From contig JBDRRF010000053.1 in the NCBI GenBank assembly GCA_043825875.1, forward strand, positions 1 through 34,108: a DNA stretch of 34,108 nucleotides, in the 5' to 3' direction. The position numbers are program-made. Shown in pieces: positions 21,001 through 27,000 of this stretch; the stretch's first letter is position 1, and the number at the start of each line of letters is the position of its first letter. This stretch comes from Pseudomonadota bacterium. Its GTDB lineage: Bacteria > Desulfobacterota > Desulfobacteria > Desulfobacterales > RPRI01.

Positions 21001-24000
21001 GTCTTGCGGCATTATATAAAACATTTATAAAGTCTCACTCTGTAACAGTGGTTGCTCCCGAACGTGAGAGAAGCGCAGTAAGTCACAGCATTACTCTTCA
21101 TAAACCTCTTCGTGCAAGCAGAATATGTCTGGAAAGCGGACTCTCAGGATATGCCGTAAACGGCACGCCGGCAGATTGCGTCAAGCTGGGAATTCTTGAA
21201 ATACTTGGTTCTAAACCGGATATAGTTATATCCGGTATAAATCCGGGTGCAAATATAGGCATTAACCTGAATTATTCGGGAACTGTTTCGGCAGCTAAAG
21301 AGGCTGCTTTGTGTGGCATTAACGCTATTGCAGTATCTATACAGGGATATGCTTCAACCCATCTGGATAATGCAGCCATTTTTGCTGAAAAACTTGCAAG
21401 AAAAGTTGTCGAAAAACAACTGCCTCGAGGAACCTTTCTCAATGTTAATTTGCCGGATATGCCTTTTGAAAAAACAGCCGGAATAAAAATCAGCACGCAG
21501 GACCTATCGGTTTTTTCAGAGTTTTTCGAAAAAAGAATTGATCCCAGAAACCGCACATATTATTGGCAGGGAGTCAGCTCAAATCATTCGGGATATAACC
21601 CTGATAGTGACGGAGAGGCACTTTCCGGTAATTATATATCAATAACTCCGATAAAGTGTGATATGACGGACTATAATATGATAGAAGATATTAAGAAATG
21701 GGACATGGATTAAAAAGTAAATTGCAAATTTTACTGTTTGAAATACTATCTAATAAACGGTGGAAAATATGAAAAAACAATATGCCGGATCTGTAAGGGC
21801 AGGAGAATTAGTGAATGATATTTTTGTTTTGTCTGAAAAAAATATTTCACAAAAAAAAGATGGAAGCGATTATATTAATGTTCTTCTTTCAGACAAAACA
21901 GGAAAGCTTAAGGGCGTTGCATGGGATAATGTGGATAAAATATCAGCAGACAAAAATCCGGGTGATTTTGTTCATGTTAAGGGAAGCATATCGGAATACA
22001 AAGGGGCTTTGCAGATTGTAATAAAAGATATGGAAAATATATCTTCCGATTCAATTGATCCCTCCGATTTTCTTCCTTCAACAAAGCAAAATATCGATTT
22101 AATGTTTGAACGTTTGCTAAAGCTTTCCGGCTCAATAGAAGAGAAAAACTTAAAAGCACTTTTGGATGCATTCTGGGCTGACAACAAGTTTGTCGAAAAC
22201 TTTAAAATAGCTCCTGCTGCAAAAAAAATGCATCATGCATATTCAGGCGGCCTGTTAGAACACACGCTTTCAATGGCTCTTTTAGCAGACAAAATCGCAG
22301 GTCATTATATTGGAATAGACAGAGATCTTCTTATTGTGGGCACAATTCTTCATGATATCGGAAAAGTCAGGGAATTTGTTTATAAATACAGCATTGATTA
22401 TTCGGATGAAGGCAGGCTTTTAAGCCATATAGTAATAGGAATTGGTATGCTTGATGAGAAAATCAAAACCATTAAAGAGTTTCCTGAGACTCTTGCAGTA
22501 CTGTTAAGGCACATGATAGTAAGCCATCATGGCACAAGAGAATTTGGTTCTCCGGAGCCTCCAAAAACAATTGATGCGGTTTTGCTTAATTATATAGATG
22601 AAATTGATTCAAAGATAAGCGGCATACGTGATTATATTTCTTCAGATGATGCCGGAGGAAACTGGACATCCTATCACAGGCTACTTGGGCGCCATTTTTA
22701 TACGGCAAATAACAACATGCAAAACAAAGAAGATGAAATTAGCGAATAAACCAGTTTAAAGTAACAAGGTAAAAATAATGTTTATTACATTTGAAGGTAT
22801 CGAAGGCTCAGGGAAAACTACACAGATACGACATGTCATGGAATTTTTAGAAAATTCAGGAAAAGCTTGCGTAATGACCCGTGAACCAGGGGGTACAATT
22901 ACAGGGCAAAAAATCCGTTCTATTTTGCTTGACCCTGATAATAACGGAATGGATCATTCGACTGAACTCCTGCTATATCTGGCTGATAGAGCTGAACACG
23001 CAAACAAAATTATAAAGCCTGCTCTATCGGCAGGAAAAACCGTTTTATGCGACAGATATTATGACGCAACTAAGGCCTATCAGGGTTATGCACGCGGATT
23101 GGATATGGATTTGCTGGATAAATTGCATAAACTGATAATACATGATTTAAAGCCGGATATAACAATTCTGCTCGATCTTGACCCCAAAACCGGGCTTTCA
23201 CGGGCATGGAAGCAGATAAATGCAGGGGAAAGGACTGAATTTGAAACAAGATTTGAAAAAGAAACTCTTGATTTTCATGATAAAGTCAGAAAAGGCTATC
23301 TTGAGCTTGCGCGCATTGAGCCTAAACGTTTTATAATTGTAGATGCCACAAAAGATGAAAACCAGGTAAAAAAAGATATAATAAAGGCACTTTCTTGATG
23401 AGCTATTCTATCTTAGATACAATAGGCAACACCCCTCTTGTTGAAATCAAAAAATTAAACCCGAATCCCAAGGTAAAAATTCTTGCCAAGCTTGAATACT
23501 TTAATCCCGGTGGTTCAATAAAAGACAGAGCAGCTCTTTTTATGATCGAAGATGGAGAAAAGTCGGGAGAGCTTACCCCTGATAAAACCGTGATAGAGGC
23601 AACGAGCGGAAATACAGGCATCGGCCTTGCGTTGGTCTGCTCAATTAAGGGTTACAAACTTCTTCTTACCATGTCCGAATCGGCAAGCATTGAACGCCAG
23701 AAGATACTAAAAGCCCGCGGAGCCGATATTCTTCTTACTCCAGGACATCTTGGTACTGACGGAGCTATTGAAGAAGTATACCGTCTTTGCAGGGAAAATC
23801 CGCCTGCTTATTTCATGACCGATCAATTCAATAATGAAGCAAACTGGAAAGCGCATTATTATACTACAGCAGAAGAGATCTGGAAACAGACGGAAGGCAA
23901 AATTACGGCAGTTGTTGCCACCCTTGGCACAACCGGGACTGTAATGGGAATTTCGCAAAGGCTTAAGGAATATAATCCGGATATAAAAATAATTGCGGTA

Positions 24001-27000
24001 GAACCATATCTGGGCCATAAAATCCAGGGCCTCAAAAATATGAAGGAAGCATACCGGCCTGAGATTTACGATAAAAAGCGCATTGATAATATTGTCAATA
24101 TCGATGATGAAGAAGCTTTTGAAATGGCAAGACGCCTTGCAAAAGAAGAAGGATTGTTTGTGGGAATGAGCAGCGGAGCTGCTATGGTGATCGCACAAAA
24201 CAAAGCATCTGAAATGGAAGATGGCACAATAGTTGTTATCTTTCCGGATAGCGGAGAAAGATATTTAAGCACTTCCCTTTTTACAGTAAAAGAAAAAATA
24301 AACCTTTCGCTTTTTAATACCATTACAAGAAGCAAGGAACCTTTTGAGCCTATTAACCCCGGAAAAGTATCCGTTTATTCCTGCGGGCCGACCGCACATG
24401 CAAGGATGCATCCGGGAGAGTGCCGCCGTTTTGTGTTTTCGGACCTGTTGTGCCGTTATCTTGAATACAGAGGATATTTAGTAAAACATATAATGAACAT
24501 AACGGATCTTGACGACAAAACCATAAACGGATCTGAAAAAGCGGGTCTTGAACTATCAGAATTCACCGAAAAGTATATTGATCTGTTTCAGGAAGATCTC
24601 AAACTTCTTGGAATCAAACCAGCAGAAGATTATCCAAAGGCTAGTGAACATATTAATGATATGGTTATGCTTGCAGAAAAACTTGTTAAAAAAGGCTATG
24701 CATATGAAAAGCTGCGCTCTTTGTATTTTGATATCTCCAGGTTTTCGGATTACGGAAAATTATCGGGAATTGATTTAAATAAAATAAGAATAGGCGCAAC
24801 CGTTGACCTTGATGAATATGAAAAGGATAATCCGAGAGATTTTACCCTGATGAAAAGAGCAAAACTTTCGGAGCTTAGACGGGGGATTTATACTGCAACC
24901 GACTGGGGGAATGTCAGGCCTTCCTGGCATATCCAGTGCGCTGCAATTGCAATGAAATACCTTGGCGAAAGTTTTGATATTCATACAAGCAGCAGGGAAC
25001 TCATCTTTCCGCATCATGAGAATGAAATTGCCATTTCAAAGGCTTTGACAGGAAAACCTCTTGCGAAATTCTGGATGCACTGTGACAGGGTGCTTGTTGA
25101 TGGGAAAAAGGTTGATGAATCAAAAGAGCGGCTTTGTGTTTCAGACCTTGCAGATATGGGCTATACGGGCAGAGAAATAAGATTCTGGCTGATTTCAACT
25201 CACTACAGAAAGCCCATTGTCTTTTCAAGCGAACGGCTTGAAGATGCAAGAAAATCCCTGAAAAGGCTGGACACATGTGTTCGTGCTTTGCTTGATATCA
25301 AAACAGGAGAGCCATATCCTGAAATTGATCAGCTTCTTTATGATATTAAAAGCGGGTTTGCGGGTGCAATGGACGATGATCTTAACATATCTGCCGCGCT
25401 ATCTTCCATATTCAAGGTTATAAGAAAGGTAAATGTTCTTACTAAAGATAAAAATATAGACGAAACCGGCGCAAAAAAAATTCTGGACGCATTTAAAGAT
25501 ATTGATTCTGTGCTTAATATTTTTGATTTTGGATACTGCTTTCTTGATCCGGAAGTAAAACGTCTTATAGAGGATCGTGACAAGGCAAGAAAAGAAAAAA
25601 AATGGGACGTTGCAGACGATATCCGCAAAAAACTGGAATCAATGGGAGTTGCAATAAGAGACCGGAAAACCAGATAAAAGTTTTTAACAAGGACCACAAT
25701 GAAACCTTTATATTTTCCATTTACATATATCAATGATGCTAAAGCAGCAAATCTGTGCGCCTGTTTTAAACAGATAGCCGTTTACCAACCAGGTTTTTTG
25801 AACCTTTCTGAAAACATGCAAAAACTTTCCGATAAAGGCCTTATCGATATCCGGGTTCCCGGCAAAGGGGATGAAGCAAAGCTTAAAGCTCTTTTAAATG
25901 AATACAAAGCATGGGCAGAACTTCATCAAAAAAGCGATATAGCTTTTTTAAACGCAACGGAAGGGAAACATCCTTTTTTTGATGAAACATTTCCATCACA
26001 GCTTGCTTCGCAGATTAAAAAAAATATGGGTGGGAACCAAGTAAAAGCAAAAACCGATTTCCTCTTTAATTCAAGATTGTTTCTTGGCATAGCTCAGGAA
26101 TATGACCAGCAGCAGGAGGCAATAATAAAAAACCTGGCTTCTGTAAGTGAAATGGAAAAGAAACTTCTATCAGATTTAACCGATGAAGATGAAAATATAT
26201 TCAGTAATAGTGCCGGAGCTTTTTTTAAAACAGGCCATGAACCGGAAAGATACAAAATAAAAGAAAGACTTGAGGCATGGATATATCTTTTAATAAATGA
26301 TAAGGAAAAACCGTGTTTTTTTATTACAGACAGCAAAGATGTAATTGATCTTATTATAGAAACAAATCCTGATTTTGAAGAAGTTGTTGATTTGCAGAAA
26401 ATTCCTGTCTGCATTGTCCCGGATATTATGGATAACTGGCAAATTATGCTTGCCAAACAAGTAGAAGGTTTGTTATCGGATAAAAACTTTAAAGTGAGCA
26501 AAGATATTAATAATATCCCTGCTGTTAACAAGACCGAAAGAAACGTATCTTTGAAGATTTTCAGGATAAGCAATAAATCCTGGTACGAATTTTTCCAAAA
26601 TATCCTTGCCAAAGATATTGATGTTATACAAAATGACGATAAAATTAATAAATGCATATTAATTGGCATTGTTGAATAATCCCGTTTATCTTTATGATAT
26701 AACATCAAATAAATTCTATCCCCCCGTTTCTTTTTTTTATTCAAAAAAATGAAGAAGAAGGCTTGACTCATATTATCAATTGGTATATGGACTTTGCCCA
26801 ATACTATAAAAAATAGCTGAGCAAACTATTTATTGTTCAATATAGAAAGGAGAAAATAAAATGGCTTTTAATCCTATCGTAGATGAAGACAAATGTCAGG
26901 GATGTGCTGAATGTGTTGATGTATGCCCGGTTGAAGTTTTTGAAATCCAAGATGAGAAATCCGTAGCGGTTAATGCGGAAGAATGTCTCGGTTGCGAAAG

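Follow-up and report, generated by a model that had tools for sequence, protein, structure and literature searches.

A single gene in the window (the whole stretch of DNA analysed, 34,108 nucleotides from a member of the Desulfobacterales) joins a cysteine synthase to a complete cysteinyl-tRNA synthetase (CysRS) body in which three ATP-site elements are replaced (Table 1). In the reading we favor, which has about an even chance of being correct, the first half is a genuine O-acetylserine sulfhydrylase, the sole intact copy in this genome, and the second is a non-ligase CysRS that would bind tRNA-Cys and, in this lineage, cysteine, as a regulatory or docking module comparable to HisZ. Databases are probably mistaken in calling this protein a "cysteine--tRNA ligase", since the ATP site is lost and the tRNA-reading residues are kept; binding or sensing is the likelier task of the second half. 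A literature search found no paper describing a fusion of CysK with a dead CysRS.

Table 1. Features of the fusion gene and its neighbors (window coordinates)
Feature	Position	Strand	Basis
Thymidylate kinase gene (tmk), upstream	22778..23398	+	neighbour analysis
CysK/CysM - CysRS-like fusion gene, 759 aa	23398..25677, stop included	+	ORF, Pfam, NCBIfam
Cysteine synthase (O-acetylserine sulfhydrylase, CysM-like) domain, aa 1-300	23398..24297	+	PALP, TIGR01136
CysRS catalytic-core fold (Rossmann + CP), ATP site decayed, aa 316-618	24343..25251	+	tRNA-synt_1e
Span with zinc ligands C329, C514, H539, E543	24382..25026	+	alignment to solved CysRS
HIGH position, HPGE, aa 338-341	24409..24420	+	alignment to solved CysRS
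Family-specific CP insertion (R487, L490, L493, K494, G496)	24856..24885	+	column conservation
HGGGxDL position, HTSSREL, aa 529-535	24982..25002	+	alignment to solved CysRS
KMSKS position, KVDES, aa 571-575	25108..25122	+	alignment to solved CysRS
DALR_2 helical domain, aa 654-709	25357..25524	+	Pfam
CysS_C anticodon-binding domain, aa 716-759	25543..25674	+	Pfam
326-aa ORF, downstream, no known family	25699..26679	+	neighbour analysis

Gene architecture, genome context, and distribution

The reading frame is uninterrupted, and the other strand is riddled with stop codons. An earlier note on this DNA had described a cysteine synthase plus a complete CysRS body within 759 aa, and the domain searches agree: Pfam places PALP at aa 6-284 (1.7e-74) and tRNA-synt_1e at aa 316-618 (3.7e-82), and the NCBIfam models cysKM TIGR01136 (376.1 bits for the synthase half, cut-off 344.15) and cysS TIGR00435 (373.7 bits for the fusion protein, cut-off 340) are both passed. 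The best 120 homologous matches listed are, as had also been reported, full-length (758-765 aa, 74-96% identity).

The synthase half closely resembles CysM/CysK (2BHS, 2JC3). Its model superposes on CysM 2jc3/2bhs with a TM of 0.96, and 70 of 70 fusions share, without change, the catalytic residues K42, S70-G74, Q143, G177/T178/G180/T181, and S258. It differs in carrying a 460-aa C-terminal extension and in falling under the equivalog cut-offs of both CysM (356.6 vs 394.2) and CysK (333.5 vs 350.95). That it is the only cysteine synthase of the genome, as previously claimed, holds at the DNA level: tblastn of aa 1-300 against the whole genome returns the fusion and a 78-aa remnant at C114:10403-10636, a decayed second cysK seen as an N-terminal scrap with stops, and nothing else, the remaining PALP genes being TrpB and ThrC. 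The proposal that the fusion gates the only cysteine synthesis keeps its premise of a single synthase for this genome and a few relatives, but about 29 of 41 relatives also possess a stand-alone CysK, so the fusion is usually not alone in this role. Serine O-acetyltransferase (CysE), suspected of being absent, is encoded at C80:1-783 (-) by a gene cut by the contig end, its match scoring 126.8 bits over the first 105 of 162 profile positions. A canonical CysRS, already noted as present elsewhere in the genome, lies on a separate contig at C15:22133-23569 (-).

Locally, the ATG of the fusion overlaps the TGA stop of tmk by one base. The latter is the upstream neighbor in four of five other loci of the order, and a homolog of the 326-aa ORF lies directly 3′ of the fusion in three of the five; no regulatory partner was found in the gene neighborhood outside the order. 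The family, at first taken for a module of the Desulfobacterales, spans the phylum, occurring in 160 of 401 sampled genomes, apparently from a single origin. At least two cysS-family matches occur in 155 of the 160 carriers, and one more (G357) has a separate canonical gene; these matches and the canonical CysRS of this genome imply that the fusion is not needed as a ligase. Four draft carriers (G048, G125, G196, and G400; 62-97% complete, 210-710 contigs) lack a visible second CysRS, and their fusions, where examined, read HIGQ/KMPNT and HLGE/KMSHE, so that residual ligase activity may persist in some lineages.

Lost and retained features of the CysRS-like half

Over its second half the fusion shares the fold of canonical CysRS (1LI5/1U0B, 8QHP) at 37-43% identity: the model of the fusion is complete (pLDDT 89.4), and the second half matches 8qhp with a TM of 0.91 and tRNA-bound 1u0b with 0.83 over 475 columns. 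Motif positions, defined by residue-by-residue alignment to the solved enzymes 8qhp, 3tqo, and 1li5, bear out the replacement of HIGH, KMSKS, and GGG-DL reported earlier; in addition, KIIK has become KTIN, and CGPT (C329), WHIQC (C514), and FPHHENE (H539, E543) are kept. H-x-G-H, GGG, and KMSKS each occur in 0 of 69 Desulfobacterota fusions, and forms close to active ones are found in a minority (KMSRS in 14 of 69, H-x-G-N in 7 of 69). The H-x-G-(E/Q/D) pattern proposed from 12 sequences for the HIGH position fits HPGE in the window's protein but is looser across the order, where GMGE, RPHE, GLGH, and NPGQ also appear. Within that order, retention is 0.27 over the ten canonical ATP-site columns and 0.97 over the zinc/cysteine-site set. 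We infer from these alignments that the CysRS-like half no longer activates cysteine with ATP and that its ligase activity is lost.

The zinc ligands C329, C514, H539, and E543 correspond to E. coli C28, C209, H234, and E238 (counted along the alignment), and all are present in the window's protein, as the earlier note stated. Across the family, all four are found in 40 of 69 fusions and the C, C, H set in 54; at least one Cys is missing in the other 15, which rules out cysteine sensing as a role common to the whole family. The anticodon-binding domain, rightly described before as kept, preserves R727, R731, D740, R743, G750, and D755 (E. coli R423, R427, D436, R439, G446, and D451, counted along the alignment), an invariant being a column whose conservation among 83 canonical CysRS reaches 85% or more. 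Retention of these six residues is 1.00/0.98/0.98 in three fusion groups, the 15 zinc-ligand-less sequences included. The CP and SC-fold invariants Y436, Y443, Y452, G453, K476, D481, F482, R595, and Y603 are 93-100% kept in the three groups, as is R604 except in group Z (0.80). Features without a canonical counterpart also stand out: the CP insertion, with 96-100% conservation across the 69 fusions, corresponds to a gap in 93-98% of the 83 canonical CysRS. Near the acceptor-end path, E. coli R168 is swapped for T, W184 for L/F, and G201 for V at near fixation, and a canonical-invariant Q at position 546 is I in nearly all fusions; tRNA may therefore bind differently, or its 3′ end may stay out of the pocket. 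Viewed family-wide, the loss of the zinc pocket in 15 of 69 members and the retention of anticodon invariants at 98-100% would shift the emphasis from cysteine toward tRNA.

Purifying selection acts on the dead core as strongly as on the synthase half. Among 13 genes of the genus, omega is 0.05 for CysK, 0.051 for the core (aa 316-618), and 0.081 for the whole second half, which is thus not a decaying relic in the window's lineage. Within the genus, constraint is weakest on the anticodon domain taken as a whole (omega 0.22), with only the canonical invariants fixed. The earlier verdict of "not a tRNA ligase" is supported by the loss of all three ATP elements and the presence of a canonical CysRS, and the core is under this selection nonetheless. 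The two halves may also dock on each other. Their predicted ipSAE of 0.50 (runs 0.48-0.53; best control 0.00) counts as weak support, given that 116 of 157 solved complexes reach the mark, as do 2 of 215 mismatches, and that passers at or below 0.60 comprise only 18 of those 116 complexes and both mismatches; contacts agree across runs by at least 82%, and partner pLDDT is at least 85.

Candidate roles for the second half

In the favored reading, the synthase half would make cysteine, partnered by the CysE encoded elsewhere, and the second half, folded as a complete CysRS without ATP activation of cysteine, would hold tRNA-Cys. In the window's lineage, its ligands would further include cysteine or the cysteinyl terminus of charged tRNA. 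The ligand signal would be coupled to the fused synthase. Both the tRNA binding and the regulatory coupling are steps that we infer. It is possible, if rather unlikely, that the second half is instead a structural passenger, left by a once-bifunctional ancestor whose synthase fed an active CysRS, then made redundant, neutrally decayed at its sites, and kept for folding or assembly of the synthase. Such a history would suit the graded decay, in which basal lineages read HLGN/KMSRS, the window's order has lost the ATP motifs, and zinc ligands are missing as well from 15 of 69 fusions; in a tree referenced to the canonical clade, the near-intact forms branch closest to that clade, and both the window's order and the zinc-less forms hold derived positions. 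It would also suit the docking and a Nanoarchaeota MAG fusion (P0125, 768 aa) of the same domain order and similar length, which differs in keeping HIGN, HTGGIDL, and KMSKS and nests among canonical CysRS, making it an independent and probably active fusion and suggesting that joining both activities is useful in itself. Neutral decay is nevertheless hard to square with equal omega in the dead core and the synthase, with the conserved CP insertion, or with the persistence, despite loss of the ATP and zinc sites, of anticodon-domain surface residues for which CysK has no obvious structural need.

The retained anticodon, CP, and SC-fold invariants and the intact PLP beta-replacement domain on the same chain would also fit tRNA-dependent chemistry, in which tRNA-Cys is held so that the PLP domain acts on an esterified amino acid, converting activated seryl-tRNA to Cys-tRNA or modifying Cys-tRNA, for example to a persulfide; cysteine ligands without ATP elements are what binding, rather than making, an aminoacyl end requires. 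We consider this improbable, given the swapped residues near the acceptor-end path, the zinc pocket dispensable in 15 of 69 fusions, the one ordinary tRNA-Cys(GCA) and canonical CysRS of the genome, its lack of a detectable SepRS (best match 27.1 bits vs a cut-off of 380.65), and the absence of an adjoining gene suggestive of such a pathway. Very improbable is a persisting ligase of MshC type, whose non-canonical ATP site would activate cysteine and charge tRNA-Cys or another acceptor: the passed TIGR00435 cut-off, the kept zinc ligands, the four drafts with no other CysRS seen, and members two substitutions from the active pattern (HLGN, HTSGTDL, KMSRS) speak for it, and against it stand acidic residues where HIGH has its second His and KMSKS its second Lys, a glycine loop reading TSS, an MshC profile score of 191.9 vs a cut-off of 485.1, and the canonical CysRS here. 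Scarcely probable at all is a CARS-type persulfide synthase making CysSSH from cysteine with PLP, without ATP or tRNA. In an excerpt of PMC5660078, this activity of the E. coli and mammalian enzymes is independent of ATP, tRNA, and the zinc cysteines, and could hence outlast HIGH and KMSKS, and the organism does live on sulfur chemistry; the same excerpt reports that each single mutation of K73, K76, K266, or K269 greatly lowers it, whereas the fusion has K374, N377, K571, and E574, so that with two of four necessary lysines the persulfide product suggested earlier is unsupported by the known CARS mechanism. Of the 69 fusions, 31 have K and another 31 have R at the K73 position, and K occupies the K269 position in 0-20% per group.

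Relation to known systems

HisZ couples a ligand signal to HisG, as the HisRS-like domain of GCN2 does for its kinase. Like the CysRS-like half, HisZ is a non-aminoacylating synthetase paralog that keeps the site for its cognate amino acid and is physically linked to the enzyme making it; it differs in having a class II HisRS fold rather than a class I CysRS fold and in being a separate subunit rather than a fusion. The anticodon-binding domain, which HisZ is not known to have, is kept with its invariants in the fusion. In excerpts of PMC9734150 and PMC10795190, HisZ activates HisG and mediates inhibition by histidine.

MshC, the mycothiol cysteine ligase, is likewise a CysRS paralog with a non-translational role and a similar fold (TM 0.85 to 3c8z), but is ATP-dependent and devoid of the anticodon domain (its profile spans 411 positions). 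Some Desulfobacterales, from the bacterial group of the window, also encode an additional CysRS copy, CysRS*, which Mukai et al. (PMC5389517, in excerpt) describe as lacking the anticodon-binding domain and lying 3′ of selB*/selC*, with the charging of a tRNA as its proposed task; the fusion, by contrast, keeps that domain, has lost the ATP motifs, is joined to CysK, and adjoins tmk. In favor of tRNA binding by the fusion, other CysRS paralogs that do not read the GCA anticodon, MshC and CysRS*, are without an anticodon-binding domain.

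A synthetase half without its ATP motifs

The fusion gene is a single open frame facing many stops on the opposite strand, and its ATG overlaps by one base the TGA stop of tmk, the thymidylate kinase gene that precedes it. Its product passes two curated NCBIfam cut-offs, that of the cysteine synthase family cysKM (TIGR01136; 376.1 bits vs. 344.15) and that of the cysteinyl-tRNA synthetase (CysRS) family cysS (TIGR00435; 373.7 bits vs. 340), and it is because the latter is exceeded that the database name reads 'cysteine--tRNA ligase'. The synthase half has K42, S70-G74, G177/T178/G180/T181, and S258, none of which varies across 70/70 fusions; they correspond to the PLP lysine, the SGNTG substrate loop, the GTxGT phosphate loop, and the active-site serine. 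Frame, Pfam and NCBIfam matches, and alignments to solved CysRS confirm the earlier note's description of the gene.

Features of the window and of other contigs discussed here
Feature	Location	Strand	Remarks
Fusion gene	window 23398-25677	+	759 codons
PALP	fusion aa 6-284		Pfam
tRNA-synt_1e	fusion aa 316-618		Pfam
DALR_2	fusion aa 654-709		Pfam
CysS_C	fusion aa 716-759		Pfam
Downstream ORF, 326 aa	window 25699-26679	+	22 bases past the fusion; homologues 23-33% identity
Methionyl-tRNA synthetase	window 13756-15675	-	ordinary; C-terminal tRNA_bind domain
Serine O-acetyltransferase (CysE)	contig C80:1-783	-	cut by contig end
Piece overlapping CysE	contig G000:C64:46-177		contig end
cysK remnant	contig C114:10403-10758		

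The second half was aligned to the solved CysRS structures 8qhp, 3tqo, and 1li5, with E. coli numbers counted along the alignment. As had been claimed, the ATP motifs are replaced and the zinc/cysteine ligands and anticodon domain are kept. HIGH reads HPGE, KMSKS reads KVDES, HGGGxDL reads HTSSREL, and KIIK reads KTIN. Throughout the Desulfobacterota fusions, H-x-G-H, KMSKS, and GGG are each found in 0/69 sequences, and the HGGGxDL loop is 96-100% conserved among 83 canonical CysRS. All four zinc ligands are retained (C329, C514, H539, and E543, corresponding to E. coli C28, C209, H234, and E238), and the anticodon-binding domain is present with R727, R731, D740, R743, G750, and D755 (E. coli R423, R427, D436, R439, G446, and D451), six residues that presumably read the anticodon in 1U0B.

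Retention was quantified over 88 columns that are at least 85% conserved in the 83 canonical CysRS, separately for fusions of the window's order (group O, 11 sequences), other zinc-keeping fusions (group M, 43), and zinc-less fusions (group Z, 15). Across the fusion family, the tRNA-side invariants outlast the zinc pocket, which is a new finding, and the CP-domain and SC-fold invariants of canonical CysRS are kept likewise. The fusions also share features of their own, namely near-fixed swaps at E. coli R168 (to T), W184 (to L/F), and G201 (to V), at fusion position 546 (canonical-invariant Q to I) and 515 (S to A), and a conserved insertion in the CP domain (aa 487-496), R487-L490-L493-K494-G496.

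Retention of canonical CysRS invariants in three groups of fusions
Residue set	O	M	Z
ATP site	0.27	0.57	0.25
Zinc/cysteine	0.97	0.94	0.39
Six anticodon-domain residues	1.00	0.98	0.98

Cysteine synthesis elsewhere in the genome

The assembly (118 contigs, 99.8% complete) carries a canonical CysRS gene on contig C15, in agreement with the earlier note. By profile score and conserved residues, the fusion is predicted to be a cysteine synthase, and it is the only intact gene of the CysK type in this genome, a claim that holds at the DNA level: beyond the fusion, the PALP family matches TrpB at 632 bits, ThrC at 189 bits, and two scraps of contig C114, and tblastn with the synthase half as query yields, apart from the fusion, a single stretch of 78 residues (C114:10403-10636; 42% identity). 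The C114 locus, where a 78-aa C-terminal stretch (42% identical to fusion aa 218-295) precedes an N-terminal scrap containing three stops, is what is left of a stand-alone cysK that was lost; the closest relative, the near-identical G008, shares this remnant.

The supposed absence of CysE is contradicted by the serine O-acetyltransferase gene on contig C80, which makes the usual route through O-acetylserine available. A short piece at the end of contig C64 overlaps the hexapeptide region of this gene, probably as the result of an assembly fork. Neither SepRS (best 27.1 bits vs. a cut-off of 380.65) nor a reverse transsulfuration enzyme (PF01053 matches weak and partial, best 39 bits over 136/381 positions) was found in the genome, which encodes one ordinary tRNA-Cys(GCA) and one tRNA-Sec. 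The sole intact CysK-type gene, the CysE gene, and the failure to find a transsulfuration enzyme together point, indirectly, to the fusion as the enzyme that would make cysteine from O-acetylserine and sulfide.

Distribution, origin, and graded decay

The whole fusion is present in 33 of 41 genomes from the genus and order; another 6 have pieces of it at contig ends, and 2 (G030 and G036) have separate genes only. A stand-alone CysK of 44-53% identity also occurs in about 29/41, among the matches listed. When the phylum was sampled evenly, at a threshold of E <= 1e-120, the fusion was found in 160/401 genomes, 142/340 high-quality genomes, and 99/255 genera, with identity down to 48%. Its carriers include Desulforapulum autotrophicum, Desulfatibacillum, Desulfobulbaceae, Desulfopila, Desulfocurvus, Desulfovibrionaceae, and Desulfovibrio ferrophilus, as well as one MAG labelled Polyangiaceae. 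Two of these are cultured, D. autotrophicum (62%; placed by its NCBI name in the window's order) and D. ferrophilus, whose fusion is of the zinc-less type. When the cysS family was searched for in these 401 genomes as well, 155/160 carriers proved to have at least two matches; one more (G357) has a single match that is a separate canonical gene, and four draft carriers (G048, G125, G196, and G400; 62-97% complete) have the fusion's own half only.

A FastTree phylogeny of the second half, comprising 112 rows (70 fusions and 42/83 canonical sequences, every second canonical row being omitted) and providing SH-like support only, sets all Desulfobacterota fusions to one side of a single branch with support 100. 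This topology fits one ancient fusion in Desulfobacterota followed by stepwise loss. The Nanoarchaeota fusion P0125, placed within the canonical CysRS clade, points to a second, independent fusion event in archaea that still looks active. This 768-aa CysK-CysRS protein, from a MAG, has all three of HIGN, HTGGIDL, and KMSKS intact, and is possibly a truly bifunctional enzyme.

To follow the extent of decay, 64 fusions taken from across the phylum were joined by five representatives of clusters and by the protein encoded in the window. H-x-G-N, a form shared with a clade of real CysRS and the Nanoarchaeota fusion, is found in 7/69 fusions, and KMSRS in 14/69 Desulfobacterota fusions. In the window's order, KMSKS is lost in 11/11 sequences; the last HIGH position is E, Q, or another non-His residue in 9/11, and the other 2/11 read GLGH, in which the last His is kept and the first lost. 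All four zinc ligands are present in 9/11 of these sequences, with the Glu alone replaced in 2/11. At least one zinc cysteine is also gone in 15/69 fusions, the Desulfovibrio type among them. Read from the canonical clade, the tree has the near-intact forms first, such as those of loci L041 and L046 with HLGN, HTSGTDL, and KMSRS; both the zinc-less forms and those of the window's order are derived. Such a series within one orthologous family, from near-intact to fully decayed, constitutes a natural experiment on the passage from enzyme to pseudo-enzyme.

An apparent stand-alone version of the paralogue is represented by P0137 and by the P0138 cluster (58 members, 468 aa); these share 46-49% identity with the second half, lie on contigs of up to 12 kb, and carry HIGL, HTSGxDL, and KMSRS. 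Since the P0137 cluster has a 782-aa member, some of these proteins may be fragments. Six further proteins (P0147, P0149, P0170, P0172, P0208, and P0233; 675-995 aa) have the CysK-like domain C-terminal, behind another region, and thus show this synthase in alternative architectures. One complete-looking genome, G080, has a fully decayed fusion; its only other CysRS-like match (locus L029, G080:C2:129272-130033) covers aa 300-557, contains an in-frame TGA, and has an unusually low cysS-family score (3.5e-113).

Possible roles of the second half

Nei-Gojobori estimates for 13 genes of the genus (medians over pairs, with usable dS in 70-75/78 pairs) give omega values of 0.05 for the synthase half, 0.051 for the dead core (residues 316-618), 0.13 for the helical domain, and 0.22 for the anticodon domain. 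The dead site therefore sits in a domain constrained to the degree expected of a working enzyme. Taken with the retention data, the sequence comparisons indicate that the second half is under selection, and that the family-wide selected feature is its tRNA-facing residues and not the cysteine pocket. This pattern favours a tRNA-Cys-binding module coupled to the synthase, which in the window's lineage would bind cysteine as well.

The main rival holds that the second half is a passenger, a structurally required leftover of a once bifunctional enzyme. The AlphaFold2 model (74-row alignment; mean pLDDT 89.4, pTM 0.73) has low-confidence regions limited to the linker, 466-477, and 575-577. By Foldseek, the first half matches CysM (TM 0.96) and the second matches 8qhp (TM 0.91) and the tRNA-bound 1u0b (TM 0.83 over 475 columns), with no entry spanning both halves. 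Folded as two chains, the halves give an ipSAE of 0.50 (0.48-0.53) vs. 0.00 for three controls, which the tool grades as weak support. The remaining rivals are less likely than the passenger. Residual ligase activity would be in keeping with the near-intact motifs of some family members, and given the replaced motifs a ligase is very unlikely in the window's lineage. Tran­sfer RNA-dependent chemistry by the fusion is likewise a lesser candidate. Persulfide synthesis of the CARS type (the earlier note had entertained persulfide as a product) needs each of K73, K76, K266, and K269 (KIIK and KMSK) according to PMC5660078; the fusion, reading K374, N377, K571, and E574, has two of these four lysines, which speaks against the proposal.

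A bolder proposal is that the fusion is a charge sensor for tRNA-Cys, a protein-level counterpart of the T-box riboswitch, which we regard as a speculative and rather unlikely reading of the sequence pattern. In this scheme, recognition of the GCA anticodon would fall to the retained Arg/Asp residues of the dead CysRS half, and its zinc/cysteine pocket, also retained, would test the tRNA 3' end, being able to hold a cysteinyl end and unable to make one. The fused synthase would then be on with uncharged tRNA-Cys and off with charged tRNA-Cys. If true, this would be a new way to match amino-acid synthesis to translation demand, across a phylum of sulfate and metal reducers. Because the fusion keeps a tRNA-reading domain, tRNA-coupled control of cysteine synthesis is directly testable with one protein.

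The closest known analogue of the fusion is HisZ, as a functional kind of regulatory pseudo-synthetase and not as a sequence family. The two share a synthetase paralogue devoid of catalytic signatures alongside a true synthetase; in the fusion, the paralogue is in addition physically joined, in one ORF, to the biosynthetic enzyme of its cognate amino acid. A HisZ-like protein would also place the enzyme under allosteric control by the bound ligand. The fusion would provide a second clear example, HisZ being the first, of a synthetase-derived protein put to use in making the amino acid that the synthetase itself handles. Two other relatives were considered and set aside. The fusion scores 191.9 bits against the MshC model (TIGR03447; cut-off 485.1). 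CysRS* of Mukai et al., as described in PMC5389517, is without an anticodon-binding domain and adjoins selB*/selC*; the fusion has that domain and, with no tRNA gene in the window, is neighboured by tmk, an HD/OB protein, and SurE, so that CysRS* is a different paralogue.

No CysK-CysRS fusion or dead CysRS paralogue was found described in the literature searched, subscription journals and bioRxiv supplements being outside its scope, and the sections seen of PMC2922099, PMC5388404, PMC9437257, and PMC5389517 make no mention of the fusion. New here are the phylum-wide count, the graded-decay series, the single-origin tree, the apparently independent archaeal fusion, and the CysE gene and cysK remnant of this genome. 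In databases, 'cysteine--tRNA ligase' stands on thousands of entries, and the most decayed forms are called 'cysteine synthase'. The ligase name is probably wrong for the fusion, and a wrong name affects metabolic models and counts of synthetase genes in Desulfobacterota.

The gene neighbourhood was scanned over 112 ORFs around 20 diverse carriers, a greedy choice from 205 ORFs that dropped those shorter than 110 aa or more than ~2.7 kb away. No cysE, sulfur-carrier, or tRNA gene is among the scanned ORFs, and beyond the window's order the fusion is flanked by unrelated housekeeping genes, with no conserved partner. Within the order, tmk is the immediate upstream neighbour of the fusion in the window and at 4/5 other loci, and the immediate downstream neighbour, in the window and at 3/5 other loci, is a fast-evolving ORF of ~326 aa. 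The latter matches no Pfam or NCBIfam family, and its best Atlas score (0.88) is a lead only. A DUF1178 zinc-ribbon gene adjoins the fusion in 3/15 loci outside the order (L109, L110, and L112, from three families), two of which have Memo and AMMECR1 genes on the other side. The window's methionyl-tRNA synthetase gene belongs to a housekeeping block with genes for a PSP1-domain protein, DNA polymerase III delta', a NusG-like protein, and LptD.
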